From contig JAUCBJ010001928.1 in the NCBI GenBank assembly GCA_032718475.1, forward strand, positions 1-64,000: a stretch of 64,000 nt of DNA, written 5' to 3'. The number at the start of each line of letters is the position of its first letter. The first letter of the stretch is position 1. A program made the translations under genes and the position numbers. A model generated the notes under the pieces. That model saw only the letters and a program-made list of their open reading frames with translations, did no database searches and was not told where the DNA came from. Positions 1 through 32,251 of the stretch are shown here, one piece after another. The DNA comes from Nemertoderma westbladi (taxonomy: Eukaryota; Animalia; Xenacoelomorpha).

Positions 1-1
1 T

Positions 2-310
2 TTGCAAGCATTTGTGGATAGCTTAATACGCGGTGAAGCCGATCCAACCATTACGGAGGACGATGGTCGTTATATCGAACCGCCGATGTCCCAAGAGCAA
101 CTTGCGCGTGAATTGGACTATCGAAAATCCACCGCGCGCTATACGCATCGTAATAGTACGTATATGGACTTCCTAGCTACCGGCCATCCTATCGATTTAC
201 ATGATACGGACGATGTAGACACCGAAAGGGAAATGGTTCTATTTAAATATCATACCCAGCGGAGTCGGAACGATAAACCGAGAATAGATCACGAAAAATT
301 ACATTCGTAA
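2..310 (+). pseudogene. N-terminal fragment of the BEL accessory gene (ORF3), truncated by frameshift and deletion
   Basis: QAFVDSLIRGEADPTITEDDGRYIEPP... matches ORF 18786-17107. Confidence 0.9.
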
Positions 311-347
311 CAGACAGGGAAGACGAACCAATATGCCTAGAATCTGA

Positions 348-1397: not shown

Positions 1398-1474
1398 CTG
1401 TTTAGAGTATTTACGTATATTAGAAACTGTGATTTGTATATTTTATAGACTCAAATCCCATTTTCTGGGAGCGG

Positions 1475-2732
1475 TGTAAAAGCTTCTGTGGGATATAACT
1501 GGCCCCTTTGCTTCACAATCCAGTTTCCCCCCAGGTGCTGGAATACTCTAAAAAAGGTTCTCTAACTGTATATATATTCCCCTCGCCCGCAAGGTACCGT
1601 TACAGGTGTTTTAACGGACATAAAAGTCATTCTGCTATATACGTGTTTTAGCGGACATGGTAAGGCAAAAAACCCGCAATACGGCAAATACTTTTACACA
1701 GCTTAGCCGTGATGATTCAGATTACGACATCTAGCAGCTGGTTGCTTAAATGGAAACAGCCATTGGACGCATGGTTCTTTGTTTGGCTTCAGCCAATCAG
1801 AGCGATTCTCTCTGTCGATGTGGAGCTTTGAGCCGATCATACTGGGATTGTTCAGTCTTACAGTTTTTTACTGATACTTTGTTGTTATTGCTGTCTAAGC
1901 CAGAAACAACGGCTCTAGCAAGAAACATTAGTAGGCTTAAGATTATAGAGCGTATGACTGTTATCAGTTCGACGGTTCATAACAACTCACATATCGGTCC
2001 ATATCAGTGCATATCATATCTTAACCTACCGTCTTAATGTTTTTACTGTTGTCATATCTTATATCAGTGGATTGAATATTATTTGGAGAACATTTATAAA
2101 GAACCCAAATTTCCCAATTTTCTTGATACACTACAGGTTAGAGAGGCGGGTTATATATATAGCGATTGCGACTTATATTATTGTGGTGTGTATTGAATTT
2201 AATGCTATTTGATAAGCCCTACATGAGTCCGTTGCTATTCTCTTTATATATGATAAAATTCATTGACGGTCGGCAAATTAGTGAGCAGTATTGTGCGTTA
2301 CCGGTAGTGTGCATGATTGTGGCTGATAACTAAGCATTTCCTAAAGAATGCGCCTCATACGTGAATCATAAGCCTTACCGACTTACCGTTGTGATTAGTG
2401 TAAGTCATATCTCTGTCTATCTAGATAGAGCGCCACGTCCTAAAGGAACTGTTAATATTTCCCGAAAGTGAATAATATTAGTCAGAAATTATTTATTAAC
2501 GATCAATCGAATAATACAATACCGTAAGCTTCACTGCAATAATAATCTAAGCCCTCAGAATCCAGTCTCCCGGGATTATCCAGCGGGTGAATGGACGCGC
2601 ACTAGGCTGGCTTCTGCTAATGTTGTGTTTATTGGTATTAAATATTGTCATCTTCTAGAGTCGATTTATAAACCAAAAAGACATATAAATTTTGGCAGGT
2701 TAAACTGCTAAAGGTCTTCAAAAGCGCGTACA
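1475..2732 (+). repeat. 3' LTR of BEL copy 1 (1,258 bp)
   Basis: TG...CA termini; homologous to the reverse complement of 13233-14492 but clearly diverged. Confidence 0.93.
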
Positions 2733-8160: not shown

Positions 8161-8484
8161 ACAGAGCAGTGCAGTGGGCTGACAGCAGCAGCTGGTTCCA
8201 CCAACTCTCACTAACAAGTTAGTGCCACTAACCGCTTAGGGTGGTGTTAGTGGCACTAAGATAAGTGGCACTTAATTTAACTGTCCCACCACGACCACTA
8301 ACACTAACCCTATGCTTAGTGGCACTTACTGCCTCCCTAAAAGCCGCACTAAGCTTATTTTATTTCAAACAAAGCTGTTTCCTGGGTGATTTATCATAAT
8401 CATTAAAAATACATATTAATATGCAACATCAACTTTTGTATTTTTGCAAAAGTTTTTACCAATGACCTTATTTACACTTTTTGC

Positions 8485-9588: not shown

Positions 9589-9619
<31 letters not shown>

Positions 9620-13083: not shown

Positions 13084-13232
13084 ACAACATTTGTGTCTAC
13101 TGTTGACGGTGACACAGGACCATTTGAAGTGTTATGGGGCGTCCTCCAGGGAGACACACTTGCACCATTCTTGTTCATAATTGTTGTTGACTATGTTCTA
13201 CGCATGTCCTTAGATCATCATAATGATGATGG
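13084..13232 (+). mobile_element. RTE-like LINE, left half (split by the BEL insertion)
   Basis: VDGDTGPFEVLWGVLQGDTLAPFLFIIVVDYVLRMSLDHHNDDG rejoins in frame with VMITPP...DLDFADDL at 32253 once the element and one TSD are removed. Confidence 0.92.
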
Positions 13233-14492
13233 TGTACGCGCTTTTGAAGACCTTTAGCAGTTTAACCTGCCAAAATTTATATGTCTTTTGGTTTATAAAT
13301 GTACTTTAGAAGATGACAAATATTTAATACCAATAAACACAACATTAGCAGAAGCCAGCCTAGTGCGCGTCCATTCACCCGCTGGATATTCCCGGGAGAC
13401 TGGATTCTGAGGGCTTAGATTATTATTGCAGTGAAGCTTACTGTATTGTATTATTCGATTGATCGTTAATAATTAATTTCTGACTAATATTATTTACTTT
13501 CGGGAAATATTAACAGTTCCTTTAGGACGTGGCGCTCTATCTAAGTAAACAGAGATATGACTTATACTAATCACAACGGTAAGTCGGTAAGGCTTAAGAT
13601 TCACGTATGAGGCGCATTCTTTAGGAAATGCTTAGTTATCAATCACAATCATGCACACTACCGGTAACACACAATACTGCTCACTAATTTGCCGACCGTC
13701 AATGAATTTTATCATATATAAAGAAAACAGCAACGGACCAATGTAGTGCTTATCAAATAGCATTAAATTCACTACAAACCACAACAATATAAGTCGCAAT
13801 CGCTATATATAACCCGTCTCTCTAACCTGTAGTGTATCAAGAAAATTGGGAAATTTGGGTTCTTTATATATGTTCTCCAAATAATATTCAACCAAAACAC
13901 AACAGTAAATAGCAGTATAATAATGTATGTTGAACCGATAATGTAAGACTGAAGTGAGATAAGATATGTGAATTGTTAAGATAACAGTTATACGCTCTAT
14001 AATTTAAGCCTACTAATGTTTCTTCTAAAAGTATGAAACGAATTGACTCTAGAGCCGTTGTTCCTGGCCTAGACAGCAATAACAACAAAGTATCAAGAAA
14101 AAACAGTAAGACTGAACACTCTCCTTATGATCGACCGAAAAGCTACACGTCGACAGGAAAAATCGCTCTGATTGGCTCAAGCCAAACAAAGAACCATGCG
14201 TCCAATGGCTGTTTCCATGTCAGCAACCAGCTGTTAGATGTCGTAATATGAATCATCACGGCTAAGCTATGAAAGGTATTTGTCGCATTGCAGGTTTTTT
14301 GCCTTACCATGTCCGCTAAAACACGTATATAGCAGAATGACTTTTATGTCCGTTAAAACACCTGTAAAGGTACCTTGCGGGCGAGGGGAATATATATACA
14401 GTTAGAGGACCCCTTTTAGAGTATTCCAGCGCCTTGGGGGAAACTGGATTGCGAAGCAAAAGGGCCAGTTATATCCCACAGAAGCTTTTACA
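13233..14492 (-). repeat. 3' LTR
   Basis: Direct repeat of 30987-32246; one mismatch noticed by eye (14435 T vs 32189 G). Confidence 0.97.
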
Positions 14493-14500
14493 CCGCTCCC
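14493..14500 (-). promoter_or_regulatory. Polypurine tract GGGAGCGG abutting the 3' LTR
   Basis: Identical in copy 1 (1467-1474), directly before TGTA. Confidence 0.8.
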
Positions 14501-14570
14501 AGAAAATGGGATTTGAGTCTATAAAATATACAAAATCACAGTTTCTAATATACGTAAATACTCTAAACAG

Positions 14571-15572
14571 TTAGTCTTTCTTGCGCGGACGGCGTTTACG
14601 CAGTTTTTTAAAGCTAGCAAGAGTCCTTTTCTCTTTGGGGCGAGCCACTTTACAAGGAGGGCTATAACTCCTGGGTGAAGGGTGCAATATGATTGCATCA
14701 GAGGGTGTAGGATTATGGTCGGTGTATCCGCCAGTCGAAGTACCGGGTTGATTGACATCAACGTCAGGTGAGAGGGGTCTAACGGCTTTGAGAGCTCGTT
14801 TCAAGACAGCCGCTCTTACGGGTCCTTTACGAGTGGTCTGAACGAGGGCCGTGGGTGGACCATAGGCAGTTAGAAACTTCCGGGGTTTAATGGTCCTTTC
14901 CAACTCGCGTTCGTGGGCTCGGTATTCGTAAGGCCTTCGATGTACTTCCTGCAACTCGGGGTGTGAGTTAACAAACAAGTCTCCATAGTCCGGATCCTGA
15001 CGGATATAATTGATTAAGTTATAGGAATGAAGGTCGCTAGGATTAACACTCCTGAGAAATTTGCGTACGAATTTAGTTGAAATACATTCTCCGACGCGCT
15101 TCAGTAGCTCGTAACTCGATATGCGTGATTTCTGTTCAACAGAAGCGAATAGATAAGGATGGAACGCATAAACTCCTTCGTAAGCGCGTCCGGGATAATA
15201 ACGATGGCGCGAATCACAATGTAAATCAGCGTTCGCTTCCCAAGCTCTGATGTAACGTAGTGTGATCATTTCATCTACGCTTTCCAAATCGTGATTAAAA
15301 GGGCAATCGAAACTGGCGTGTCCCTTTAGTTGACAATGGTGACATTGAGTCATAAATTGAGGGCAAACCGCAAAAACGTGCAAATTATTAAATCTGCAAT
15401 ACGCGCAATAAATTTCCATCGCCGGTTGTTCGTGGAAATAGGAATAGCGGATGTTTGTGTCCATGGGCGTAACATGGTCTCTCGATGCGCATAACCGACA
15501 ACGTTGCCGAGAAACATAGTTGGCATGGCGATAATCGTACGCAGTGAGACACTGTGGGCGCCTTGATACCAT
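14571..15572 (-). CDS. Accessory gene segment C: CCHC zinc knuckles and basic C-terminal NLS
   Basis: CRLCASRDH, CAYCRFNNLHVFAVC, CHHCQLKGHASFDC (CX2CX4HX4C), KKLRKRRPRKKD; conserved in copy 1. Confidence 0.82.
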   Translation of the reverse strand: MVSRRPQCLTAYDYRHANYVSRQRCRLCASRDHVTPMDTNIRYSYFHEQPAMEIYCAYCRFNNLHVFAVCPQFMTQCHHCQLKGHASFDCPFNHDLESVDEMITLRYIRAWEANADLHCDSRHRYYPGRAYEGVYAFHPYLFASVEQKSRISSYELLKRVGECISTKFVRKFLRSVNPSDLHSYNLINYIRQDPDYGDLFVNSHPELQEVHRRPYEYRAHERELERTIKPRKFLTAYGPPTALVQTTRKGPVRAAVLKRALKAVRPLSPDVDVNQPGTSTGGYTDHNPTPSDAIILHPSPRSYSPPCKVARPKEKRTLASFKKLRKRRPRKKD

Positions 15573-17278
15573 TCTATGATGTAATCGTTATCACTGTTCC
15601 GGGGCGCGATAGGCTGAATCTCTTCAGATTCTAGACATATTGGTTCGTCTTCCAAGTGCATAGCTGAAGTGGGCGCGTCTGTCTCTTCAGGTGGACCTAT
15701 TGTCTGAATTTCCACGACAGAATAACCTGTGGGGATTCGAGGTCTTTGTATAACTGAGGAGTGCAAGTTCGATATACAAATCTCTTGGAAAATGGCGAAT
15801 CCAGCGCTATCCAACTTCTCTGCAGCTGAGTTTCTTAGGCTGAGTTTGGTCAAAGCGCGGTCTTTAAATTGGCTATCCACGTTGCGAAACGGGGTTAAAA
15901 ATCGCCGGAAACATTCGAAACGGATGAATTTATTATGTTCATCTAGCTTAGCGAGTTTGGTCCCAAGTATTAATGGATGGGTGCGTATAGTACGACTGCA
16001 CACATCGGCTAGCCAACCGGCAAGTGCGGTGTTTTCAAAGATCGTGTATATAGCTAAGGAGGGACGGAGTGGAACACTCATGAAGCTATACACGGCGCCA
16101 GGTGCGGTCAATGGTCCATCAAAGTATAATCGAGAATAATGGTCTCCGTATACCTGTTGATAGTTAATGGGATTTCCGACTTTGAAATTCCATCCGTATT
16201 CCTGAAAGGCAAGATGTCCGATGGAAGTTCGTTGCACCTTGGTAATGTTGCTAGACGTATTAGCATACATGGTGCGGAAGAAACCTCGACCTTCTGCCCA
16301 GGGAGCAATCAGCTGAGTATCAACGAAAGGGTATGGAATGTCCTCCATATTCCGAAAGTCGTTTTGGAGATCTCCATAAACAGCTGAGCCGATTTTAAGG
16401 ATTCTTTCGTTGAACAACATCTCGAGTACGGGCTGGGGTAACATCGATCCATCGATGCCCATGGCCGGTTTGCGTTCGGTGTCAATGACGTAACGCTGCG
16501 CGAGTTCGAATTGTCCATGTCGGAGATTCTTTTGTGTTTCGGTGAGAGTTTCAAAAGAATAATCAATCAACTCGGAACACGCTCGAGTAAACACGTGGGT
16601 AGAACCAGCTAATCCGCGGATGTGGATCATGTGCGTAGTTCCTAGCTCTCCGACCGGAACGCTACCTTCATTATCGTAGGTGACAACTCCATACATCTCA
16701 ATAACATTAAGAGTTTCATTCCACTCCTTGGTGGCATTCTCTAGGGTCATCCCTACTGGATGCCACAAGGTGGCGCATTGGTTAGCGTCAGGGAGATCAC
16801 TATACTTCATATGCCGAGTGGTATACGTCTCCACATTTCCATATCTTTGTATTTTCTCTTCTTCAAATAATACATCTAGATTCCAATGGACTAATCGAGT
16901 TTTAATAAATCCATCGAGGTTATAAGGAGGTTCTATATCTTTCTCGATTCGAGAAATGTTATATGGTTTTCTAAATGAGTTTACCTTTACTAACTGATCC
17001 AGATGTTTCTGCAATTGTTCGAGTTCGACAATGTCTAGAGGATTTATTAGTGGTAGAAACTTTAAATCATGTGTCGGGTCTTCTGGTTTTACCATATAAT
17101 ATTGAGTCAGATTAACGTAATAAGGGTGGTCTTTAATCCCGTAAAACGAGTTCTGTAAAGGTCTAGCGCGTATGTTGACATCGTGTACCATACGACGGAC
17201 AAGATCCGCTCGATTGTCCGGAGGTTCAACGAGTATACCGCCAACACGAGCGGCCTCGATCGGCGGACGCTGTAACAT
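15350..17278 (-). CDS. Accessory gene segment B: DEDDy (WRN/EXD/Mut-7/RNase D-like) 3'-5' exonuclease domain
   Basis: ExoI VVTYDNEG; LPQPVLEMLFNERILKIGSAVYGD (ExoII); FVDTQLIA; SIGHLA; ExoIII-like PLRPSLAIYTIFE. Confidence 0.72.
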   Translation of the reverse strand: MLQRPPIEAARVGGILVEPPDNRADLVRRMVHDVNIRARPLQNSFYGIKDHPYYVNLTQYYMVKPEDPTHDLKFLPLINPLDIVELEQLQKHLDQLVKVNSFRKPYNISRIEKDIEPPYNLDGFIKTRLVHWNLDVLFEEEKIQRYGNVETYTTRHMKYSDLPDANQCATLWHPVGMTLENATKEWNETLNVIEMYGVVTYDNEGSVPVGELGTTHMIHIRGLAGSTHVFTRACSELIDYSFETLTETQKNLRHGQFELAQRYVIDTERKPAMGIDGSMLPQPVLEMLFNERILKIGSAVYGDLQNDFRNMEDIPYPFVDTQLIAPWAEGRGFFRTMYANTSSNITKVQRTSIGHLAFQEYGWNFKVGNPINYQQVYGDHYSRLYFDGPLTAPGAVYSFMSVPLRPSLAIYTIFENTALAGWLADVCSRTIRTHPLILGTKLAKLDEHNKFIRFECFRRFLTPFRNVDSQFKDRALTKLSLRNSAAEKLDSAGFAIFQEICISNLHSSVIQRPRIPTGYSVVEIQTIGPPEETDAPTSAMHLEDEPICLESEEIQPIAPRNSDNDYIIEWYQGAHSVSLRTIIAMPTMFLGNVVGYAHRETMLRPWTQTSAIPISTNNRRWKFIARIADLIICTFLRFALNL

Positions 17279-18786
17279 AGGGGCGTCAGCGATAAGGTTT
17301 TTCGATCCTGTACTGATATCAACTGTGGAATCATAGAGGGATGACGAACGGTTTTAGAGTAGAGGTCCGTCATGAGGATTTGAGCTTCAGGTTGGGCTAA
17401 AGCGGCTTCTTCTCTTTCTTCCAGTTTCGTGTGTTTCTCTTCGATTAGATTTTCTTCCGCTTGTCTCTGTAAGCGTTCATCTAAAAATTCTTGTAGAGAA
17501 TACGTGCGTCCAAGCTCGATGTCTTTCTCGAGGTTTTGGATTTCTCTATCGAACTGTGGCAAGGCTAACTCCTTCACCGATTGGACTTGTTGTTGTAATT
17601 TACGTTTCTCTAAACAATCTTGTGTTCCCTTTCCGATTTTCTGTCGAATGGCGTCTAAAGCGTTTCTTATAACACTCTCCTCGACTTCCGTGGCGGGTTG
17701 TATCGGGTTTAATCCTGGACGATTGTAAGGATCAAAGGGCGATATTAGCTGCCCGCATCCCAATCCGGCTAAGTAGGATGGGCGGATGTCTAACGAACCC
17801 ACTACCGGAGCACCAACGATTAGTTGTTCGGGTAACACTAAGTCTTTGAACAGGGAATATAGTTCGGGAGGATCAGTGATACTGCTAGGATCAAGAGTTT
17901 GAGGTCTCACTAGGGAATGAGGAGGCCTGACCGAGTATTCCGGAACTCTGATCATGGGTTTATTCAGTGATCGTTTAAGACGAGCGATCGTGGGTGGTAC
18001 GTCGAACAGGTTTCGCTCGAAACTCCCGTAAGTATAACGCGTAAAACTATGTTTAGCGCAACGTCTCCGCGGATGTTTATGTCTTTCAATTTGTTGGTTG
18101 GGTCTAGGGCATTCGTCACAATAATACCAAAGACGCACGTCCTGTAGAGGAAAAGCGGGTGATCGTTCTCCAGTTTTGCAGTATTCTTCCATTTGTTCAA
18201 AACTATCCGGGATAACAGGTAGTGGACGATCGGCGGTAAGATACATCATAGTGAAATAGAGCCGTTTGAGTTCGACTACAGGGTCGTGATGGATACCTTG
18301 AGGATATCGAGTCTCTAAGTTCTGCTGACTAGCGACGTTGAGATAGGTTTCTCTCAAAAACTCTAAGTATTCGTTGAAGTCGATGCATTTATCCGGTTCT
18401 TCAACGTTTTCTCTTTCCAGTCTATTACGAATAGAATTTTCGTGATCTATTCTCGGTTTATCGTTACGACTCCGCTGGGTATGATATTTAAATAGAACCA
18501 TTTCCCTTTCTGTATCTACATCGTCTGTATCATGTAAATCGATAGGATGGCCGGTCGTTAGGAAGTCCATATACGTACCATTACGATTCGTATAGTGAGT
18601 GGTGAATTTTCGATAGTCCAATTCACGCGCAAGTTGCTCTTGGGACATCGGCGGTTCGATATAACGACCATCGTCCTCCGTAATGGTTGGATCGGCTTCA
18701 CCGCGTATTAAGCTATCCACAAATGCTTGTAAAGGTAGAGTATATCGCTCCCTAATACCAAGATCATCTTCTATCAACTCCGTCAT
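17107..18786 (-). CDS. Accessory gene segment A: Cys/His cluster, Pro-rich linker and coiled coil
   Basis: 559-aa ORF; YCDEC...HKH...CAKH; E/Q/K-rich helical end; no signal peptide or TM segment visible. Confidence 0.75.
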   Translation of the reverse strand: MTELIEDDLGIRERYTLPLQAFVDSLIRGEADPTITEDDGRYIEPPMSQEQLARELDYRKFTTHYTNRNGTYMDFLTTGHPIDLHDTDDVDTEREMVLFKYHTQRSRNDKPRIDHENSIRNRLERENVEEPDKCIDFNEYLEFLRETYLNVASQQNLETRYPQGIHHDPVVELKRLYFTMMYLTADRPLPVIPDSFEQMEEYCKTGERSPAFPLQDVRLWYYCDECPRPNQQIERHKHPRRRCAKHSFTRYTYGSFERNLFDVPPTIARLKRSLNKPMIRVPEYSVRPPHSLVRPQTLDPSSITDPPELYSLFKDLVLPEQLIVGAPVVGSLDIRPSYLAGLGCGQLISPFDPYNRPGLNPIQPATEVEESVIRNALDAIRQKIGKGTQDCLEKRKLQQQVQSVKELALPQFDREIQNLEKDIELGRTYSLQEFLDERLQRQAEENLIEEKHTKLEEREEAALAQPEAQILMTDLYSKTVRHPSMIPQLISVQDRKTLSLTPLCYSVRRSRPLVLAVYSLNLRTIERILSVVWYTMSTYALDLYRTRFTGLKTTLITLI

Positions 18787-19600
18787 ATTTGCTATCTGAG
18801 TTTATTAATATCAAATAAGTTTGTATTTAGGCGAGCGGGCGTCGCTGCCTACTTCTCTTTGCCCCCGGACAGTGGGATTCTCAGCGCCGATGTACCGTCG
18901 TCGCGGTGTTTACGCCAACATGTAGCAACAGCACGACAACGATAACCGGCACAAGTCACTCCACTGTCCGTCCCAAAGGCTTGGATCCACTAAGGTTCTT
19001 TCTATAGGAGAGTTGGGCTATTTTTACAATTGCGACTAGCTACTGTAAACATACTTTAGCAGTAACATTCACCTATAAACGCACAAATTCCACACAACTG
19101 TCAACAACTGCACACACACAGGCCATTTGTCCGTTAGTCAGTGCCTTCCAGAATGTCACTTTATTACTGTGTATCCTTGGATACTAACAGTGTGCTATGT
19201 ATTCTCTATGCTATGCAATGGGACAAGCTTTCTATTGTTCTTTTAACTTGCTTCTAATTCTAGCGTGGGTGTTGCTATGGTGACATTATGGAAAGCTAGC
19301 GGTAGAATTAGGGTAATTCTCATGCATATAGATCTGGGATGCTATTTAATAATAATTCTTTAATTGTCAATATCCTCTTTATGCATGATTTTATTAATTT
19401 TATCGGCTATTGACTATATGTTGGAGATTCTCGCACTCTAATACACTCAATAGGATGAATCTCCGCTCCCATGATCTATTAATTAATGGAATTTTGGGAA
19501 TGTTATAAATTGTACAAAATGACAATTTATGAAATTCATTTAAAAATATGAATTTAAATTTATTCCCGTGAATTTTATTATTTGATGTTAAAATTGACAC

Positions 19601-19866
19601 AATTTGATTCCAGAGCAGGTCTGGGGACATAGGATCCTTAATTCCATGAAATTTGTCTTTTAAGAGTATCGGGAAGTGCTACGATATCTTAATCGACTAG
19701 AATTGTTAACGGATCTGAATTTTACAGGTTTTAATAAATATTAAATTAATATTTAAGATGGGCACCGATTTATTCCAGAACTTGTCTGGGGACGTTAACC
19801 ATTGATTCTAGAATTTGTCTTTCAAGTATATCGGTGGGTGCCGCGATATCTTAATCGACTAGAATT
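19601..19866. repeat. Diverged direct repeat (~100-bp core, ~165-bp period) in the pol-ORF3 spacer
   Basis: ATTCCAGA...GTCTGGGGAC...AATTTGTCTTT...CGATATCTTAATCGACTAGAATT occurs twice. Confidence 0.75.
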
Positions 19867-20413
19867 ACAGATGGTCAAAAGGTTTAACAGATTTATTTGC
19901 GTTTTACGCTACTGTTAGAGGGACATCACGCTACTATATGTATTATTTAATCTAAGGTAGAAGAGCAATATCGCACGAAGCAATGTCAGTGTGAAGAGGC
20001 AAGTCGTTTCCAAGGTCTACCCAGAGCTTGGTTTAGCCGAGACACGAGGATCTGAACTTTGCATTCCTAATACTCTGCCTACCAATAATACTTGAATATA
20101 GTAGTGGCTTTATTGTACTTTAAGAAGTACGGACATTTCATCTTACTGTAGTCACGTCTTTATAATATGATACGGACAGTAAGGATAAAGAAAAAAAAAT
20201 TATTTCTCGCCGTCGCACTAAATATATATTATAAGTAATTACGTACGTAATAAACACTAATATATTGCACTAATCTACTAAATAATACTAAAATAACATT
20301 CTATTAAATAAAATTGAATAAAAACGATTATAATAAAGTACATAATAAAGTTCGCATATAAAAATATAATAAAATAGATAAAATAATATAGTCATACACC
20401 CACTCCAGACGTA

Positions 20414-23413
20414 TCACGTTAGGGAGTCCCTAGATGTTTGAGGAATTAGGGAGGTAGTCGTAGGAAGAGTGTCTTGCCTTCCGTAGTTTCCAGAGAGTTC
20501 TCTGTCTCTTTCCAGTAAACATAAACGACCAACTGGGCGATTGAGTTGTTGCGTCTCAAAGATGATGCCTGGCTTCTTGAAGTTACGCCGCATGACGATG
20601 AGTTCTACCGAGCGTACTAAACCATCATCTGAGATGTGTGTCTCGATGATACGACCTGTCTGCCACCGTTTACGTGGGGGGTCTGGATCTACAATAAGCA
20701 CCATATCTCCGGCGCTGACGTTTTCTTGCTGCGCAAACCACTTAGTTCGAAGTTGTAGCGTGGGCAGATAATGTTTCTCAAAATGGTCAGCGAAACGACG
20801 GGATAGCAACTGCATAAGTTGCCAAGTTCGACGGCAGTATTCATCTCCGTCGGCAATCTCCGATCGTGGGAGCATGGCTACAGGTTTCTTCAGTAGGAAG
20901 TGCGCGGGTGTTAGCGCTTCCAGGGAATCGGGACTCGATGAGACTGGCATAAGCGGTCTCTCGTTGAGATAGGCAGCGATTTCCTCCATTAACGTCCGCA
21001 AAAGTTCGTCGGTGAGATACGCGCGGCATGGCACTATAAAGTGAAATGCGGTTTTGACACTTCGAATTAATCTCTCCCAACTTCCTCCCCACCAAGGGGC
21101 GTCGGCAGCGTTGAAGGTCCAGCTAGACGCTGTTATCCTTAGATGGTCGTCTACCTGTCTTTGGTTCCAGTCCTTCACGTAAGCCTGTATCTCGTTGTTG
21201 GCACCTATGAAGTTCGTTCCTTTATCCGATCTCATGGTATTACTCGTCCCGAAGCGAGCGATCTGTCGTCGTAAACTTAAGACGAAGCTGTTAGTAGATA
21301 GATCGTTCACCATATCGAGATGGATGGCTCTACAAGTCATGCACACGAAGATGACACACCATCTCTTGACTATAGTCCTTGCACGATATACTTCAATAGG
21401 GCCAAATAAATCTACACCAGTATTAGTAAAAGGTGGTTCATAGAAGCTTACTCGTTCCCTAGGTAATTCTGCCTCTCGCTGTGTTAAAGGCCTACTGAAT
21501 GCTTTCCTACAGGGTATGCAGTTCCTAAGAACTTGGTTCAGAGCTCTACGGGGTTTATCAAAATAATAGCGAGTTCGAATTTCGCTAAGAATTCGTTCTC
21601 TACCAGCATGATAAAGTTTACCGTGAACGTCTACAATCATCTTGATTTGTACTTCAAGATTTCTAATAAGTATGGGGAATTTGGTGTCAAAGGATAAGGG
21701 CGCGTTGGTGAGTCTTCCTCCAACACGTATTAACCCATCTATCATTGTGCTCGAGAATCGATCCCTTAAGCGCATCTGTGGATTTCTCAACAACAGGAAG
21801 TACTTTTCGGAATCCTCATAGCATTGCAGGAGTCTCAGTATCTGCTTATTTGTTTCTTCATACTCCTGGTGACTAATTTTCTCCTTTAGAAAACAATCAG
21901 ATATCTTATATTTGGGTAAATTCTTAATAACATGAACTTGTGCAGATGTCAATGGAGCGTGATCACTAGTGGTCTTCGTCCTGGAGTAGTGATGATGAAA
22001 ACATCGTCTTAAATATGTGACGGCTTTACAGAGCCGATTCCAGGAACTGTAATGATGCATTGCTCTCTGCAGCATGGGTGAGATTCCTTGCGAGACGTCT
22101 GGTATTCCAGATTTCCAATCTCTATCTCTAATTTCCACAACAGACTTATTTGTGTTGAGGGATTGTGGATCCGAAACATCATTCCCGGAAGTATGTAATA
22201 CAGATAGATCGATAGTCGGTTTAAATAACTTCGATTTACTCGCCCGGGTTTTAGGTTTGACTGTCTCCGCTCCCTTGGCTTGTCTAATCTCTGCCGTAGT
22301 AAGGTGAGGAGGCCATTCATCCTCTTCCTTGCTCAGGAAGTCGGGTCCATCCAACCAATCTGGAGTATCTATCAGTTCCTATGGAGTTGCTCCCCTGGAG
22401 GCGATATCGGCTGGATTAATCGTACCAGGGCAATGTCTCCATTGATCTATCTTTGTGCGACTAAGAATAATAGCTACTCGGTTAGTAACAAAAACGCTAA
22501 ACTGACAGACTTCATTGGTTAGATACTCTAACACGAGTAAAGCGTCGGTCCAATAAACCGTTTTCTCCAGTGGATAGTCGATTTATTCCGTTACGTTCCG
22601 GCCGATGGCTGTAGCGTATAAAGCCGCCTTTAACTCCGCTCGAGGAACCTTTAACTTGTTGTTAATCAATGCCTTAGAGGTAACCAAGGCGACCTTGATT
22701 CCATCCGGAGTTTCGACTCGCAGATATGCTACTATACCTATTCCCATGTCGCTGGCGTCTCCAAACACATGGAGTTGATAGGAATACGTAGGAAGAACAT
22801 GGCCAAAATATGCACGGGAAATTATAAAGTTCTCGATGGCAGGTAGAGAATCTTCCCATTTCATCCATTTCTTTAACAATTCCCCTTTAAGCGGATCGTC
22901 CCATGAGTGGTTTTCAAGCCACATTTGTTGTACTAAACTCCGAGCAATCAATATAACTGGGCTAATAAATCCCAATGGGTCGAAATAAGTGCTCAGGATA
23001 CTTAAACAAATCCGTTTGGTCCGAACTGGATTATCTCGCTGTTTTAACTGAAAAAACAGGATGTCTCTTTCAGTGTCCCACTTCAAGCCTAGCGTCTTGG
23101 TTTCAGGAAGATCGTCCTTTATTAAGTCTAGGTCTTTCGCTCCGCGATCTTCTACCGGTATGGCTTCCAGAAACTCACGGGAGTTGCTAGTGAATTTCGT
23201 CAGTCGAAATCCACCTCTTTTCAAACACTCTACCATTCCTTTCGCGACAGCTATGGCTTCTTCTACTGATGGAAGGGACCTTAAATTGTCGTCCATGTAT
23301 ATATTGCGTTTTATGTTGTCTATCACTTCTTTGGAGAAGGAGTCTCGGTTGTCATTCGCAGTGGTTCGCACCACGGAGCAGGCGTTGGAAGATCCCAAAA
23401 GATATGATCCCAA
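20414..23413 (-). pseudogene. pol: pol 3' part: RT (YMDD), RNase H, integrase; two in-frame stops
   Basis: NIYMDD, HVFGDASD, YWTDA, NPADIASRG, HGKLYH...CIPC, GVDLFGP, RSDKGTNF, GGSWERLI; TAA at 22583-22585 and TAG at 22379-22381. Confidence 0.93.
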
Positions 23414-26400
23414 AAGCCTGGATGGTCATCCAGTACTCTACCGGTTTCTGGTTGAGGTCTCCTTCAGGCCACCACAGAAATCTCAGGCTATCTCTATCTC
23501 TATCCAGCGCCTTGACTTGTAAGAACATTCCTTCTATATCAGAGGCGAACGCGATGGAATATTGTCTTAATCTTAATAGTATTCCCAACAAAGATTGGAG
23601 TAAGTTGGGTCCTGGTAACAACTCGGAATTGAGGGATTGACCCATATATAGAGCAGAGCCATCAAATACGACTCGTACTTCATGGGGTTTACTGGGTTTG
23701 GGAACGTAATGATGTGTTAAATAATACGTTCTCTCAGTCACTGGTGTTCCTTCCGGTACTCGCTCCGCGTATCCCTTTGTTATAAATTTCTTCAGCTGAA
23801 TTTGGTACATTTCTTTCGCTGAAGCATTAGCTGTAAGGCGTCGATATAATTGAGCGATTCTTTTCTCTGCCAAGGGTCTGTTATTTATAAATCTAGGTTC
23901 TCGTTTTCGAAATGGTAGGCCGATTTCATACCTACCTTGGTCCTTTAAAAAACGTGTAGTTGTTTCCTGGATTTGCTTGGCTCTTTCTTCTTCTATCGAT
24001 AGAGCCTTATCATATGAATTGGGCTCTACCAGTTCCTGAGTAAAGAATCGTACAGCTAGTTCGTCCCGAGTTCTAGCGTTGTAGCGCTCTATCTCATCGT
24101 TTAGTTCGTCATTGTAAGCGATGGGTTCCGATGGGTGAATCAGTTGACATAGGTTCACCTGACTTTTCCAAGTTTGGTTTTCTGTAAGTAGGTCGGTTGT
24201 GTTCTCTTCATCGAAGAGTTGGTAGATGTCGTCATTATCTGAGGAGTATGGTGTTCCCTCAGTTAGTTCGTCCACCTCACTGCTCTCCACTTCCCAATCG
24301 TGTACTTGGTATGTTTGTTCTTGTGGCATTCTCTCTTCGAGAGTCCTGCGGGAAGGGCCAGTAATGTACCAACCTACTCTAGTTCTTACCGCATAGGTTT
24401 GCAGTGGCTGCGGTTGAGCAGGCCGTTTCTCTAATGTTTCGAGCGCCTCATGCGCGTTCTGGCCGATGAGTATTTGCACTCCAGGATAATCTGTCTGGAA
24501 TCGAGGTATCTTAAGATGTTGGATGCTCTCATCCTCGTCCCAATTATAAAGGTCTGCTTGAGTAGTAGCGAAGTTCTTTATAGCCACCATTTTTACCGAC
24601 CTTATACCTTGTGCTCCTAACTTATCCTGGGGGGTGGACAACACACCTACATAGTAATCTGCCGTTAAGGTAGATTTCCAAACCTGCATAATTCCTGACA
24701 TATTCAATTTAGTCCGGAATTTGGGTTGTCCAGCAAAGATATCTTCGGCTAATTCTTGATCGATGAATGTTCCTGTGCTGCCGGAGTCAAGGAGGGCGTT
24801 CACTATGTAACTTTTGTTAAGACCGTGAACTCTTACCTGCACTACAGGAAATTCTCTGATTCCTACGTTGGAAGTTGGAGCTTTCCAAGATGGTTGTTTG
24901 GCAAAAGTAGTTGGGGGAAACTCATTGTTGGTGTCCTTTTCATAAGTAAGTGCTCGATACACTGCGGTATTGATTAGATAACAGGATTCGTTGGCGTCGG
25001 AGAATTCGTCAGTATAGAATCCTTCCATCTCAGACTCCTGATCAGTGTCATTTACATCACTGAATTGGACATGTAGTTCGGGCTCACTTACCTGACTCTG
25101 TTTGTCTCGTTCGAACTCACTGTGTAACATGATGTGATGTTTCGCGCCACACTTTGCACACTTTATATCGGAGTAACAGGTTCGCCGTTGGTGTCCTGGT
25201 CTGAGGCAATTATAGCATAACCGCTTGTCCCACACAACTGCACGTCTGTCTACAAGGGATTTCTTTAGAAATTCAGCACACGCACTCAAACGGTGGGTCC
25301 CGTCACACAGCGCACAGTTAGGTTTTATGTTACTCACTTTACCTTGGGTAACTTGATGCACTCTCGTTTTTTCTTCGGGTTTTCTTCGGTGCATTCTGTT
25401 AGGAGACTGAGGGGGGGTCTTGGCAACCTGTTCTCTCCTATCGTTGTTTCGAGCCTTATATTTACTTACCTCTTTTGGGGTTTTGTCAACGTAGTAAGAT
25501 CGGTCAGTGTCTTTCCCGCTGTCTTCTTCTTGAGAAACTTGGCTTTCGCCGTCGTCAGTGTAACACACCGGTGTTATTCTTCTCCTAGAAGCGGGTTTCT
25601 CACTTACCTTATTTTCCGATGTTTTCTCTCTGGACTGCTTGATGAGTTGTAGTTTTACCTCACCATCCAAGAAGGACATGAGATCAGCCATGGTAGGACT
25701 TCGTCGTTGTTGTTCATTCATGTACAACACTTTCTTGTCCCAGCGTGTACATACTCCACCCTTTGGTAAAGTAGAGACTACGGCTCCAATAACCATTGAA
25801 CTCTGATATTCATGAGACTTACCTAACCAGTCCAATTGTCTACAGATCTCTTGAATCTCATCGGAAAACTCTATAATCCCGCTACTAAGGAAGTGTCGGG
25901 GGGCTACTAATTTTGCATACAAATACTTAGCTATGTTATCCTTGTTACCATACCTGATGTTTAATGTATCCCATACTTGTCTTAATCCTTCTGGATGTCC
26001 AATAAACTTTAACGCCATTAACTTGGGAGGTCCTTCCAAGCACTTGATGAGGAACCTAAGTTTCTCTCCGTTAGATAGTACAGAGTTCTGTATGCTGTCT
26101 TTGTAATATTCGTTGAAAGGTAACCATTTCATCTCATCTCCATTGAATTTGACGATCTCTCCCACTTTGACCGCTTGGCGGGCTGCTGTTCCAGCCATCT
26201 GCCGCGTAAAGCTTTCTTGGGCCATCGTGTTATTTAATATCGAATTATCGGTATATAAATTTCTCGGATCAGTATCAGGTCTATAGGGAATATCATTAAT
26301 AACAGGTCTATAATCACCCTTAATAGGGTTTGCTATAGGAGTTTCTACTTCACTAGCAGTATAGATGCGTGTAGTCTCCACACCTTGCACATGTAATACT

Positions 26401-28472
26401 TCAGACCTAACAGGTTGACACAATGTTACAGGGGGTATTGGTATTCCCTTTTGGATATTCACTAATTTGTCGCGTTCTAGCGCGATACTTTGCTGCACTT
26501 CTTGCAATTCGGCCCTACTTTCCCTTACTGTTCCCTTAAGCTGGTGGACAGTCTCCTGCATCTGTCCGAGCAGGAGATTCATCCCCCGCCGTCCCTCCTC
26601 TACCCACTCGACCGCCGAAGCGGGAGTCGCCAACATAGTAGCGGGCTGACGCGGGACGACGGGAGACAAATCTTTGATTTCTCTCTCAGCTTCCAGGACA
26701 GGGATATTCTCATGGACTGTTCTACCGGGTACAGGCAGTGTAGTACTGTGTAAAGGGAATTTAGAGTGAAGCTCTGGAAGTACAGGGGTCTCTAACACAG
26801 AAGTGACTTTGGGAACGACAGGCCTAATTATTTCAGGCTCATCAACTATTGTAGGGAGTCTTTTGACCTGAACAGTTTGGTCTATGGGTTCCGTACTACC
26901 TAAGTCTGTGCTAGCTAGCTGTCTTTTAACAGCTGGGGGCAAATCAGGCAATTTGTGACGGTGAGATGTTTTTCTACGCCTGCTTAGACGAGATCTATTT
27001 CCTCCGCCTTCAGGATCGGTGGTTTCGCTTTCCTCCGATGATGTGTATCCCTGGCGTTTGGGAGTAGATCGTCTCATCATCTGCATTTGCCTAGCAGTTA
27101 ACTGTTTATTTATGTTGTCTTGCGTCTCTTGCAGATTTTCCAACTCCAGTTGGGTAGTCTGCTCAGACGCTCTCCGTTCTGCTTCTGCCACTGCCCTTTC
27201 CGCCTTTGCTTCTGCCGCCGCTGCCTTTCTTTCTGCTTCTACTTCTACCGCCACTGCTTTTCTTTCTGCTTCTGCTTCTGCCGTAGCCGCCGCCTTTTGT
27301 TCCTCTATCCGTCTTTTCTTTACCTTTTCTTCTTGGACTCTAGCGAGGCGGAGTTTTTCATCAAATTCTGCTTGGTTAGCAGCTAACATTTCAGCATCGA
27401 TTGAATCTAACACACGCTGGGTTCCTTCACTATTGGGGGAAAGTCCAGACAGCCGTCTCCTCAATTCTTCGTCTCCTAGGAATCGCTGATAGTCGGACAG
27501 ATAAATGTCTATGGCGTCTCTCGTTCGTGGTTTCTCTGAGGTCTCTTCGCCTTCCACTTGAGAAAGGGTGGCATCGGTTGGTTCTTCATAAGTTAGTCTC
27601 TCAGACAGCTGGGATTTCCACTGGTCTGTTTCTTGTACTTGGAGACCTACCCGCTGGAACCAAGTTTTGACAGCAACCTGCAGTGACGTGTCCTGTCTTC
27701 TTTTGGAAGTTTCCTCAAAAGCTGATAGGATTAGTCGAATGCGTAGGGTTCTTTCGCGTACTTGATATAGCAGTTCTTCCTGCTCTTGAGGTCCTTGGGG
27801 TTGTCGAAACAGTTGTTCTTCTAATTTCTCTAAGGAGCCGAAGAATCCCTGCACATATCCTGCTGCCGACCTCTTCCAAACAGCTGGATCCATCGTATCT
27901 TTAGCCACTCCCATCCTGTGTATATCTTCCCAAGTAGCCTCGGACAGATCTAACGGGAGTCCGGGTCCGGGAAAGTTCCATTGTGACTCGACAATAGACA
28001 TCAATTCTTCCCTGGCGTATCCCGCATAATTATCCTGGGTCACTCGCTTATTTCTCGCCCAATCTGCTTGATGTTCCTCCACCGCAATCAATATAGTTGT
28101 TAGCTCTGCGGCAGGAAGGGTGAGAAGGGGGTCCGAGTAGGCTTTAGCCGTCATCTGCAATCCGCGTTCGGGGGTCAGTTCGACAGTATCCGAACTACTG
28201 GAGCTATCTGATCGCTGGGAACAAGTTTCTTGACTAGGCTGTTGCTGCTGTGGGACAGCTGCTTCCTGGTTCCGTTTGACTTGGGCCCGAGTGCCGATGA
28301 TAGACCTACGGTGTTGGATTAGCTTAGGGTCTGATACTACTACTGGAGGGATGACCTTTCTTTCAGTAGGAGGTGAGCTGAACTCCTTTCTTAATCGCTC
28401 CACACTCCTATCTGTGTCACAGATGGTTGTATCGATTAGACTGTCTGACATGTTTTGCTGAGTGTCAGACAT
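23352..28472 (-). CDS. gag-pol: Gag-protease-RT N-terminal polyprotein (1706 aa), frameshifted within RT
   Basis: KFNGDEMKW capsid-like region; CALCDGTHRLSAC, CYNCLRPGHQRRTC, CAKCGAKHHIMLH; LLDSGS protease; RVVFDGS and SDIEGMFLQV RT motifs. Confidence 0.93.
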   Translation of the reverse strand: MSDTQQNMSDSLIDTTICDTDRSVERLRKEFSSPPTERKVIPPVVVSDPKLIQHRRSIIGTRAQVKRNQEAAVPQQQQPSQETCSQRSDSSSSSDTVELTPERGLQMTAKAYSDPLLTLPAAELTTILIAVEEHQADWARNKRVTQDNYAGYAREELMSIVESQWNFPGPGLPLDLSEATWEDIHRMGVAKDTMDPAVWKRSAAGYVQGFFGSLEKLEEQLFRQPQGPQEQEELLYQVRERTLRIRLILSAFEETSKRRQDTSLQVAVKTWFQRVGLQVQETDQWKSQLSERLTYEEPTDATLSQVEGEETSEKPRTRDAIDIYLSDYQRFLGDEELRRRLSGLSPNSEGTQRVLDSIDAEMLAANQAEFDEKLRLARVQEEKVKKRRIEEQKAAATAEAEAERKAVAVEVEAERKAAAAEAKAERAVAEAERRASEQTTQLELENLQETQDNINKQLTARQMQMMRRSTPKRQGYTSSEESETTDPEGGGNRSRLSRRRKTSHRHKLPDLPPAVKRQLASTDLGSTEPIDQTVQVKRLPTIVDEPEIIRPVVPKVTSVLETPVLPELHSKFPLHSTTLPVPGRTVHENIPVLEAEREIKDLSPVVPRQPATMLATPASAVEWVEEGRRGMNLLLGQMQETVHQLKGTVRESRAELQEVQQSIALERDKLVNIQKGIPIPPVTLCQPVRSEVLHVQGVETTRIYTASEVETPIANPIKGDYRPVINDIPYRPDTDPRNLYTDNSILNNTMAQESFTRQMAGTAARQAVKVGEIVKFNGDEMKWLPFNEYYKDSIQNSVLSNGEKLRFLIKCLEGPPKLMALKFIGHPEGLRQVWDTLNIRYGNKDNIAKYLYAKLVAPRHFLSSGIIEFSDEIQEICRQLDWLGKSHEYQSSMVIGAVVSTLPKGGVCTRWDKKVLYMNEQQRRSPTMADLMSFLDGEVKLQLIKQSREKTSENKVSEKPASRRRITPVCYTDDGESQVSQEEDSGKDTDRSYYVDKTPKEVSKYKARNNDRREQVAKTPPQSPNRMHRRKPEEKTRVHQVTQGKVSNIKPNCALCDGTHRLSACAEFLKKSLVDRRAVVWDKRLCYNCLRPGHQRRTCYSDIKCAKCGAKHHIMLHSEFERDKQSQVSEPELHVQFSDVNDTDQESEMEGFYTDEFSDANESCYLINTAVYRALTYEKDTNNEFPPTTFAKQPSWKAPTSNVGIREFPVVQVRVHGLNKSYIVNALLDSGSTGTFIDQELAEDIFAGQPKFRTKLNMSGIMQVWKSTLTADYYVGVLSTPQDKLGAQGIRSVKMVAIKNFATTQADLYNWDEDESIQHLKIPRFQTDYPGVQILIGQNAHEALETLEKRPAQPQPLQTYAVRTRVGWYITGPSRRTLEERMPQEQTYQVHDWEVESSEVDELTEGTPYSSDNDDIYQLFDEENTTDLLTENQTWKSQVNLCQLIHPSEPIAYNDELNDEIERYNARTRDELAVRFFTQELVEPNSYDKALSIEEERAKQIQETTTRFLKDQGRYEIGLPFRKREPRFINNRPLAEKRIAQLYRRLTANASAKEMYQIQLKKFITKGYAERVPEGTPVTERTYYLTHHYVPKPSKPHEVRVVFDGSALYMGQSLNSELLPGPNLLQSLLGILLRLRQYSIAFASDIEGMFLQVKALDRDRDSLRFLWWPEGDLNQKPVEYWMTIQAFGIISFGIFQRLLRGANHCE

Positions 28473-28549
28473 GTTTAGCTATACAGTTGAATGCTTACTG
28501 CTATAGTTACAGTTAAAGCAAGTCTAGTAATTCAGTATGACCGTTGGCC

Positions 28550-28830
28550 TAGTACCGGTAATTTATTACAGTATTAGAATACCGGTATGCGCTTATAATA
28601 TATATATAAGTATTGTAAACTAGGTTTGTCACAGAGTACCGGTATATAATTTTAGCACAAATATATATAAATATATAATAGGCCTATCGTGAATACCGGT
28701 ATACAGCTTACACTTATAGTATATATAAGTATAATTATGAACTAGAATTAATTACAGAGTACCGGTATGATTTCAGCTCAAATTTATAGAAATAAATATA
28801 ATAAGCCTATGGTAAATACCGGTATGTCAA
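28550..28830. repeat. Degenerate ~120-bp tandem repeat with TACCGGTA palindromes in the BEL 5' leader
   Basis: ACAGAGTACCGGTAT...AATACCGGTAT blocks repeated. Confidence 0.6.
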
Positions 28831-29799
28831 TTATTTTATAATAATTGAATTTCTGAATATTTTAGGGTTACTTGGTTACTTTAACTTACTTTGTTACCGT
28901 TATTTAAGCAGTAGTCCAACTGATTTTGAGACCTAGTTGTTGTATGGCAGGCCTACTATTTATAAATCGTTTGTGTTGATTTATAATAGATATATACCCG
29001 TTTAAAAGGGTTTTTTCAATATTTGAAATAAATGTTATTATTTCTGGGGGGTCACTACACAGAAGCTGTGCGCTCTCAGTGAAGTGCTATTTATGGGACA
29101 CTAAAACAGATAATTCTAATTTACCTAAGTTACTTAATACTACAAATTACTTACGATACGGGTGAGATTAATTCTCTAATTAAACACAACAAAATATTAC
29201 GTACGAATTTTTTAGGGTAATTTTACAGGAAGTCTACAAACCAGTCTAACAAAGGGTTAGAATTCTGGTTATTATAACGGACAGGGTATTACGGTATTTG
29301 AAAATAATAAGTAGTAGTAAATATATTGCACTGTCCAGATAGGAAAATACCACCGCCTGACGACCTATAGCCGTAGCGCTATAGGTACTACGTTATGTAT
29401 CACGGAGTGTTCCTACCTAGAAGTTAATTACCGCGGACTACCAGATCCAGCGTGCCTATTAACCACTTTACAACACAAATATACTGCCTACACACTAATT
29501 ACCTCGGAAAGCACTGTACACTAAACCCTAAATTAGGTACAAGTACTGGTACAACAAATAATCAGTAGTTAAATATACTTGAACAGTTAAAAGAACCACG
29601 GCATCTGCTGGAGTGACCAGAGCACAAAGTCACCAGTCTTGTCCTACGCCAAGCAGCCCGTGTAGTACCGGGGTTAATTTAACTATAACGGTATGTATAA
29701 CAAACACAATTACTGTAGGAATAAACTTGGGGACATGAATGTTGCGAATAATCGCATAAACTCTGAATAATAAATATTACGCTACCCGTACAGAATACT

Positions 29800-30625
29800 C
29801 AAACAAAATACAGACCAAATGCTGGCAGACTACCACCAAGCCTAAATAAACTACTGTATGTGCAGATTCCAAAACGGTTAGTTAGTATGCGTTCTAACAC
29901 GGTAGTACGACTTATTCTTTAAGAGGGGATTGACCTTACAGCTATGGCTGCCCCAACTTACTAACTGGCACTTTATCAGACAAACTCTACACAAGCAGCA
30001 ATCTCTTCAGACCTAATAATAGCTAGACAACAATCCAGCCTACAAAATATCTGAGTAATAACTATTACGGTACCTGAACACACACAAACAAACACAAGCC
30101 AAAACGCTGGCAGAATACTGTCAAGCCTAAATAAACTACAGTATGTGCAGATTCCAAAATTGTTAGTTAGTATGCGTTCTAACACGGTAGTACGACTTAT
30201 TCTTTAAGAGGGGATTGACCTTACAGCTATGGCTGCCCCAACTTACTAACTGGCACTTTATCAGACAAACTCTACACAAGCAGCAATCTCTTCAGACCTA
30301 ATAATAGCTAGACAACAATCCAGCCTACAAAATATCTGAGTAATAACTATTACGGTACCTGAACACACACAAACAAACACAAGCCAAAACGCTGGCAGAA
30401 TACTGTCAAGCCTAAATAAACTACAGTATGTGCAGATTCCAAAATTGTTAGTTAGTATGCGTTCTAACACGGTAGTACGACTTATTCTTTAAGAGGGGAT
30501 TGACCTTACAGCTATGGCTGCCCCAACTTACTAACTGGCACTCTATCGGACAAACTCTACACACGCCGTAATCTCTCCAAACCCAACAACAATCCGACAA
30601 CAGTCCGGCCTACAATTATCTGAAC
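29800..30625. repeat. 285-bp tandem repeat (~2.9 copies) in the BEL 5' leader
   Basis: Identical 69-aa ORF calls at 29976 and 30261 (offset 285); flanking partial copies are diverged. Confidence 0.92.
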
Positions 30626-30794
30626 AATCTGAGCAGACTTACACGTCTTCAGCTCAATATTAACTTACTAGGAAATAAAACTGACAGAAATAGACCTAAG
30701 TAAAATCCCAATAAAAACCAGGCGTCCCCGATTTAATATCGAGACCTACCGGTATACAATAATCAAATCGAATAATACTAATGTACTTATACTG

Positions 30795-30943
30795 GAAGTA
30801 CCGGTTAGGACAGTTGGGCCTACGGACCTACAGAAGTACCGGTTCTGGCAGTTGGACCTACGGACCTACAGCAGTACCGGTTCTGGCAGTTGGGCCTACT
30901 GACCTACAGAAGTACCGGTTCAGGTTTACCGGTTGACCGGTAC
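30795..30943. repeat. ~37-bp tandem repeat (AGTACCGGTTCTGGCAGTTGGGCCTACGGACCTACAG, 3-4 copies)
   Basis: Direct reading. Confidence 0.85.
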
Positions 30944-30975
30944 TTTCAACTTTATTGCTTACTGCAATAAAGTCA

Positions 30976-30986
30976 ATGACTGTTAT
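30976..30986 (-). promoter_or_regulatory. Non-tRNA primer-binding site ATAACAGTCAT (candidate self-priming site)
   Basis: Abuts the 5' LTR; no TGG; complementary to LTR 11-mer (10/11 at 31735-31745; 11/11 in sister LTR 1954-1964). Confidence 0.65.
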
Positions 30987-32246: not shown

Positions 32247-32251
32247 GATGG

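Follow-up and report, generated by a model that had tools for sequence, protein, structure and literature searches.

A giant BEL/Pao retrotransposon of Nemertoderma westbladi with a predicted DEDDy exonuclease and zinc knuckle protein in the position of env

What might a retrotransposon do with a third gene that occupies the place of env and yet encodes no envelope protein? The question is raised by an element in the xenacoelomorph Nemertoderma westbladi (GenBank assembly GCA_032718475.1, contig JAUCBJ010001928.1, positions 1 to 64,000 of the forward strand; these 64,000 nucleotides are referred to as the window). On its minus strand, the window contains a retrotransposon of 19,014 bp with both long terminal repeats (LTRs) present (13233-32246), in which three overlapping open reading frames, collectively termed ORF3, follow pol. 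A previous reading of the sequence alone had assigned the element to the BEL/Pao group and ORF3 to a single protein of ~1,400 amino acids carrying a DEDDy exonuclease and zinc knuckles, and these proposals were followed up computationally (Table 1).

By its LTRs, the order of its domains and its Pao-specific domains, the element is a BEL/Pao retrotransposon, as had been proposed. Self-comparison of the window revealed a pair of 1,260-bp direct repeats with 1 mismatch, which start with TGT, end with ACA and are bordered on either side by the same 5 bases, the target duplication. Between them DUF1759, a trace of an aspartyl protease, reverse transcriptase (RT) with the YMDD motif, PF05380, Integrase_H2C2 and DUF5641 occur in this order. 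The Pfam matches in the pol frames include Peptidase_A17 (E 3e-33) and DUF5641 (E 1e-19), and PF05380 is described as the BEL/Pao RNase H (PMC3985635; here and below, publications other than PMC8742986 and PMC7968707 are cited from excerpts of their text). The joint of the empty site (13227/32247, 5 letters in common) is present in all four runs examined, and in run X1 the empty insertion site was found in 25 contigs. The insertion site is itself another repeat, with an RT fragment adjoining the element (32160-33101; RVT_1 E 2e-5).

The three frames of ORF3 (A, B and C) were located past pol on the same strand, in the env position. Codon usage (trained on pol) follows frame A until ~17330, frame B until the region 15560-15450 and frame C thereafter, the coding parts adding up to 485+590+328, or ~1,400 codons. 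At the switch from B to C, a second copy of the element in the window reads through in a single frame, and B and C are therefore one gene that is broken in the present copy. The switch from A to B falls inside a deletion of the second copy; there codon usage moves from one frame to the other without a gap, suggesting that A and B are also fused in one protein. Of the proposed ~1,400-amino-acid protein, the B-C join is thus seen in the second copy, and the A-B join is putative. An intron at the A/B switch was rejected, since the sole joint there is not bounded by GT-AG when read on the coding strand, and no canonical slippery heptamer indicative of a programmed frameshift was seen there by eye.

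Frame B very probably contains a domain of DEDDy fold, as judged by profile comparison. The motifs YDNEG (16678-16664), ILKIGSAVYGD (16402-16370), FVDTQLIA (16327-16304) and IYTIFE (16051-16034) are found where they had been reported. When 49 sequences were compared with a profile of 27 RNase D sequences, chosen independently of the query, frame B ranked first (E 9.9e-6), followed by a protein designated P0001 (E 0.01), while the best other frame of the window reached E 0.44. Alignment of frame B to this profile with hhalign gave 89.6% (E 2e-6) and the reversed query 0.5%; another RNase D profile that included loci picked with the query gave 93.5%, and the 27-sequence figure is the one relied on. 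NCBIfam returned two matches in total, at E 0.004 and 0.03, both to models of RNase D. In the ESM Atlas, 24 of 30 matches of frame B fall in PF01612 clusters at 0.91 with ~150 features in common, a level that the tool itself rates as no more than a lead. Also, a two-sequence profile (frame B and P0001) used in a blind search of 301 bacterial genomes retrieved 57 matches in 56 genomes (E<=0.1). Twenty of the 22 matches located in PF01612-scanned genomes fall within PF01612 matches of the listing, in every case in a frame as long as RNase D, the other two being one match in an unlisted 1,004-amino-acid frame and one instance of noise. The DEDDy profile match named as a check in the sequence-only reading was thus obtained, and with RNase D. 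RNase D is the best match among the sequences compared, and the placement with EXD1, Egalitarian, Mut-7, EXD2 and WRN put forward in the sequence-only reading is tentative. The bacterial stand-alone PF01612 family gave no match (hhalign 0.5%). Membership in RNase D/Rrp6 proper was rejected, as no HRDC domain was detected: the RNase D C-terminal profile found nothing below E 3 among the 49 sequences.

Within this domain, ExoII (an Asp followed by DTQ) is in register with RNase D, and so is the Tyr of ExoIII (PL-x6-Y-x3-E), whose acidic residue is Glu. As for ExoI, MAFFT sets YDNE on LDTE of RNase D and IDVE of P0001, and visual comparison shows a helix-strand-strand-strand order like that of P0001, apart from an insertion of ~30 residues. 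An intact site of four acids, D-E-D-E, is on the whole probable. The Glu of ExoIII, formerly read as a possible mark of a decoy, is indeed present in place of the usual Asp; it is likely to be a family trait (a D-E-D-E signature) and not decay of this copy, because it is common to this protein and P0001. The shared Glu does not prove catalytic activity, because Egalitarian retains all of its acids and needs none of them. Four results lend the exonuclease assignment no support: the pairwise match of ExoI is at chance level (513 of 1000 shuffles score equally), hhalign places the ExoI of RNase D on a stretch without D-x-E, the Pfam and PDB sequence searches return no exonuclease match for frame B, and two AlphaFold models have a mean pLDDT (predicted local distance difference test) of 31 and 30. 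ExoI is thus placed by the multiple alignment only, and ExoIII has a variant signature.

P0001 (648 amino acids; E 3e-6) is the sole homologue that a search of 1.84 billion representatives returned at E<=0.001, with 31% identity to ORF3 over 150 residues. Here too the exonuclease is followed by CCHC knuckles; the knuckle match is equalled by 1 of 1000 shuffles, and the knuckles of P0001 match the nucleocapsid (NC) protein of HIV (E 1e-4). In the ESM Atlas, 25 of its 30 matches lie in PF01612 clusters (0.94). P0001 has no counterpart of the long N-terminal part of ORF3 and is encoded on a 9,449-bp ENA contig. Three sets of word-index candidates, numbering 495, 7,989 and 3,149, yielded no further homologue, the second set returning the query itself and nothing else. 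No related loci were found in the metagenome or viral contigs searched, and matches to phages were at chance level only. Frames A and B gave no meaningful match in Pfam, PHROGs and PDB sequence searches.

The remaining parts of ORF3 bear on what kind of protein is encoded. Its N-terminus is acidic, and frame A has no family match in Pfam, PHROGs or NCBIfam. The coiled coil is judged solely by the content of E, K, Q and R (0.35-0.47, residues 361-480). The tandem CCHC knuckles previously described consist of two complete units and a degenerate one upstream, rated by Pfam below its cut-off only (E 0.03), and both copies carry the KKLRKRRPRKK tail. All 19-residue windows stay below a Kyte-Doolittle value of 1.6 (maxima 1.45, 1.58 and 0.76), in agreement with the earlier view that the third gene is not Env; an envelope or fusion glycoprotein was rejected, both signal peptide and membrane anchor being absent by this hydropathy scan. 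Taken together, the nuclease-fold domain, NC-like knuckles, charged helix and basic tail are probably those of a soluble, nuclear RNA-binding protein.

The explanation that we tentatively prefer, at somewhat less than an even chance, is that such a protein acts on the element's own ~18-kb RNA, by binding, by 3' trimming or protection, or by export. ORF3 would be expressed from a spliced or internally started RNA of its own, the basic tail would carry the protein into the nucleus and the helical stretch would oligomerise it. Knuckles and exonuclease surface together would then grip the ~18-kb genomic RNA. By trimming or capping 3' ends, the D-E-D-E site would spare unspliced RNA from being retained in the nucleus and degraded, and let it arrive at Gag. 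The preference is owed to two analogies. Export of unspliced genomic RNA depends on the CERV protein of Cer1, which has a leucine zipper, a nuclear localisation signal and a zinc finger (PMC10309623), and Egalitarian binds RNA via its DEDDy domain (bioRxiv 10.1101/2025.08.03.668247). The same study reports that Egalitarian keeps D-E-D-D-y while catalysis is dispensable, and that it transports I-factor RNA, which lends some support to an improbable alternative, namely that ORF3 encodes a catalytically idle RNA adaptor through which the RNA of the element would be attached to germ granules or motors and delivered to the germ line without an envelope. The helical stretch could dock on adaptors and the gene does sit in the env position, but the basic C-terminal tail is predicted to point to the nucleus.

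The second copy in the window, represented by its 3' end only, has an internal deletion of 2,764 bp that removes the helical stretch and the exonuclease. The same exonuclease-less joint (15652/18417) recurs in two of four runs (X1 and X4), suggesting that this form is an amplified non-autonomous derivative. Comparison of the two copies over the parts flanking the exonuclease gave a ratio of non-synonymous to synonymous substitution rates (dN/dS) of 0.17 over 424 codons (p 5e-9), with 0.16 in frame C (327 codons, p 2e-7; 0.11 in its first 150 codons) and 0.22 in frame A (97 codons, p 0.009). Six of the seven listed runs, from four studies, contain part of ORF3. In each of four runs from three studies, all of the element's 30 bins are covered, with 1,333-149,925 contigs per run, and the contigs include pieces 10-15% diverged within the exonuclease. 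By these sequence comparisons, ORF3 belongs to the element family and is under purifying selection on its flanking parts. A one-off capture of foreign DNA is ruled out by the dN/dS of 0.17 in the second copy together with the many diverged copies in the runs, and the presence of the ORF in other family members, named in advance as a check, was thereby confirmed.

A related alternative is that ORF3 is captured DNA of no function, or two unrelated genes with A apart from B and C. It would fit the breakage of ORF3 in two places in this copy, the missing family match of frame A, the missing N-terminal part of P0001 and a rearranged 30-nt stretch at 17296-17327 in the contigs of other copies. The low dN/dS of frames A and C, the gapless passage of codon usage from A to B and the coverage of all bins in four of four runs argue against it, and as an account of the whole of ORF3 it is very improbable. 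Lack of function is unlikely in itself; that the region holds two genes is doubtful, with a small but appreciable chance.

The abundance of the family (39,463-149,925 contigs in three of the runs) would also be expected if ORF3 encoded a nuclease or decoy that counters silencing, by degrading, over-trimming or sequestering host PIWI-interacting RNAs (piRNAs), small interfering RNAs or their precursors, and so led to a high copy number. Proteins with DEDDy and related folds take part in piRNA pathways, an arenavirus exonuclease suppresses host immunity (PMC7968707), and a role in silencing has been raised for the DEDDy ORF3s of rotifer retroelements, for which 3'-end processing of element RNA was put first (PMC5408684). 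The rotifer genes, however, show no clear tie to copy number or small-RNA cover in the excerpt of that report, and NC-like knuckles suggest long single-stranded RNA over small RNA loaded on PIWI. This explanation is possible but unlikely.

The state of the present copy touches the proposed action on element RNA in another way. Its pol is damaged by a change of the RT frame near 23430 and by in-frame stops at 22583 and 22379, a breakage overlooked in the sequence-only reading; the Gag N-terminal extension before DUF1759 is very long (~770 amino acids). The copy is dead in pol and broken in ORF3. Its LTRs are nearly identical (1 difference in 1,260) although it is broken, so that it most likely moved recently using the proteins of other copies, the alternative being an assembly error. 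The ORF3 protein itself would act in trans, and deleted and broken copies would for this reason still move.

Two further traits of the element, its length and its primer, bear on replication. ICTV, the international body for virus taxonomy, gives 4.2-10 kb for Belpaoviridae and tRNA-Arg/Gly as the primer of BEL/Pao (PMC8742986). The 4.2-10 kb range and the 18-nt tRNA-Arg/Gly primer site are both unmatched here, and both are typical traits that do not define the lineage. No TGG of a tRNA-type primer site was found within 30 nt of the 5' LTR. The 11 nt after the 5' LTR pair with LTR position 502 at 10 of 11 bases in this copy, and at 11 of 11 with the LTR of the second copy (position 480, window 1954-1964). 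Among 3000 dinucleotide shuffles, 11/11 was reached by none and at least 10 by 66. For its priming Tf1 uses exactly 11 bases of this kind (PMC7175516), and a survey of plants took at least 10 complementary bases as its criterion for self-priming (PMC6317226). Against self-priming, a general best-duplex test was at chance level (40 of 60 shuffles) and the pairing probability in the folded leader of this copy is ~0.06. Whether the element uses self-priming of the Tf1 type is, on these data, evenly balanced. The excerpt of PMC3601003 mentions hairpin priming in no groups other than chromoviruses, DIRS and one hypothetical ancestor, and a self-priming BEL/Pao element was not found reported in the literature searched.

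An element about twice the ICTV range and an apparently unusual primer would fit a replication aid packaged in particles, whose knuckles would bring it in alongside the genomic RNA and whose exonuclease would remove mismatched or untemplated 3' bases of the cDNA, or trim the self-primer, thereby permitting an oversized genome. Nidoviruses of at least 20 kb have a proofreading exonuclease, and the DEDDy domains carried by Dada DNA transposons are thought to process 3' ends (PMC3706591). On the other side, ORF3 is not fused to RT but stands as a gene of its own at a distance of 1.6 kb from pol, its best tested match is an RNA-processing enzyme and the Asp of ExoIII is replaced by Glu. Moreover, the rotifer families gained the gene at least twice and the early-branching ones are without it (PMC5408684), so that it is not required there. 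This alternative is rather unlikely, slightly more so than counter-silencing. A bolder proposal is given about the same low chance: a new lineage of giant self-priming BEL/Pao elements with an active D-E-D-E exonuclease, serving either nidovirus-like proofreading of a 19-kb genome or action against the piRNA pathway, and forming part of a widespread mobile exonuclease-knuckle family across retrotransposon superfamilies.

Action on the element's own RNA has to be weighed with several points that tell against it. The anatomy of the protein fits the anti-silencing and replication alternatives about equally. CERV has no exonuclease in the excerpt of its description (0 mentions; PMC10309623), hence the likeness is an analogy only. 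Activity, localisation, binding and expression of the ORF3 protein are all predicted, and the fusion of A with B is inferred. The selection figures cover the flanks of the exonuclease, which is missing from the second copy. Among the 37 listed coding variants, 5 are synonymous and 6 non-synonymous in ORF3, compared with 16 and 10 in gag-pol, a split taken from 40 of 2,689 variants and with only 11 in ORF3.

Table 1. Features of the BEL/Pao element and of its second copy in the window.
Feature	Position	Strand	Remarks
Target-site duplication (5 bp), upstream copy	32247..32251	-	flanking sequence
5' LTR	30987..32246	-	1,260 bp, TGT...ACA; 1 mismatch vs 3' LTR
Site in 5' LTR complementary (10/11) to the 11 nt past the LTR; predicted self-primer	31735..31745	-	
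Primer-binding position without TGG; predicted self-priming site	30976..30986	-	
Leader, 2.5 kb	28479..30975	-	contains 285-bp tandem repeat (29837-30563)
gag, protease and start of RT, one frame	23352..28478	-	1,708 aa; frame shift near 23430
RT (YMDD) and start of RNase H (PF05380)	22583..23425	-	terminates at in-frame stop
End of RNase H and integrase with DUF5641	20414..22378	-	second in-frame stop just upstream
AT-rich spacer, 1.6 kb	18802..20413	-	duplicated ~115-bp segment (19588-19704 / 19753-19866)
ORF3 frame A	17107..18801	-	564 aa, first ATG at 18786; N-terminal orphan region, Cys/His cluster and charged helix; coding as far as ~17330
ORF3 frame B	15350..17353	-	667 aa; coding ~17330-15560
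Predicted DEDDy (RNase D-like) exonuclease domain	16020..16720	-	ExoI D 16675, E 16669 (inferred register); ExoII D 16372; ExoIII Y 16048, E 16036
CCHC knuckles, 2 complete and 1 degenerate upstream	15303..15500	-	Pfam score below cut-off (E 0.03)
ORF3 frame C	14571..15587	-	338 aa; coding from ~15560; carries the knuckles, a stretch that looks folded, a linker rich in P, S and T and the basic tail
KKLRKRRPRKK tail, predicted nuclear localisation signal	14577..14609	-	identical in second copy
Purine-rich tract immediately upstream of 3' LTR	14493..14500	-	
3' LTR	13233..14492	-	1,260 bp
Target-site duplication (5 bp), downstream copy	13228..13232	-	
Second copy, 3' end only	1..2732	+	92-94% identical; LTR 1475-2732; part matching 15652-18417 missing

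The tandem repeats of the leader comprise 2.6 copies of 285 bp and, at 30795-30921, 3.3 copies of 38 bp. Outside the element, the window contains a 21-bp satellite repeated ~135 times that has an open frame 1,006 codons long (3475-6305), decayed pieces of RT that probably stem from a non-LTR element (8466-9644; RVT_1 E 4e-11), an uninterrupted frame of 479 codons for an amino-acid transporter that is probably a host gene (33794-35233; PF01490 E 1e-62), a large imperfect inverted repeat with 77% identity over ~1.3 kb (48948-50203) and a 422-codon frame without Pfam match (61721-62989).

Compared with known systems, the element shares with Belpaoviridae its LTRs, the order protease, RT, RNase H and integrase, PF03564, PF05380, PF18701, a polypurine tract and an extra gene in the env position. 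It differs in its 19.0 kb, about twice the usual length and also beyond the 15 kb that served as working ceiling of a large survey (PMC3118150), which would have excluded elements of this size. It also differs in its third gene, a nuclease-knuckle protein and not a fusogen of the F type or gB/Gc type (PMC13524379). A BEL/Pao element of twice the accepted size, and maybe self-priming, would alter the description of the family. With the Tf1/sushi chromoviruses it has in common the want of a tRNA site and the complementarity between the 11 nt right past the 5' LTR and a site lying in that LTR; the excerpts of PMC7175516 and PMC6317226 describe self-priming in Tf1/sushi, Tcn1 and copia TAR, and not in BEL/Pao.

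Relative to RNase D, Rrp6 and Egalitarian, the predicted exonuclease has the same ExoII (D-L...DTQ) and an ExoIII of the form PL-x6-Y-x3-acid, in register with RNase D, whereas Glu stands for the last Asp, ~30 residues are inserted past ExoI and the loop between ExoII and ExoIII is longer. Where RNase D and Rrp6 have HRDC, knuckles are found here. The CERV protein of Cer1 from C. elegans is also a non-membrane protein in the env position with a helical zipper, a candidate nuclear localisation signal and a Cys-rich finger, but belongs to a Ty3/gypsy element, has 517 amino acids and contains a G-protein-like domain (PMC10309623).

The closest parallels are the DEDDy ORF3s of the bdelloid rotifer LTR retrotransposons Juno and Vesta and of Terminons (PMC5408684; reviewed in PMC6431247, PMC5718144 and PMC6338049). 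This rotifer precedent had been named in the sequence-only reading; a nematode one, named with it, was not found in the literature searched. As in the present element, the rotifer genes are non-Env third genes past pol with an RNase D-like DEDDy domain and an altered acidic motif, and reside in young elements (PMC5408684). Their hosts, in contrast, are Ty3/gypsy or Penelope-like elements and, compared by description, they have no coiled coil, CCHC knuckles go unmentioned in the excerpt and the motif is DEED, as against D-E-D-E in a multidomain protein of ~1,400 amino acids (PMC5408684). An exonuclease ORF3 in BEL/Pao was not found in the literature searched, in accordance with the previous claim that no BEL/Pao example with so large a multi-domain architecture is known, although papers spelling 'BEL/Pao' with the slash may have escaped. 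Exonuclease ORF3s of retroelements were reported for rotifers in 2017. The present case adds a third retroelement group, an abundant and selected family in which exonuclease-less derivatives provide a natural contrast, and a nuclease domain that is unbroken in one frame and thus assayable as is. While the idea of a DEDDy ORF3 is already known, the BEL/Pao host, the size, the architecture, the D-E-D-E signature and the possible self-priming appear to be new.

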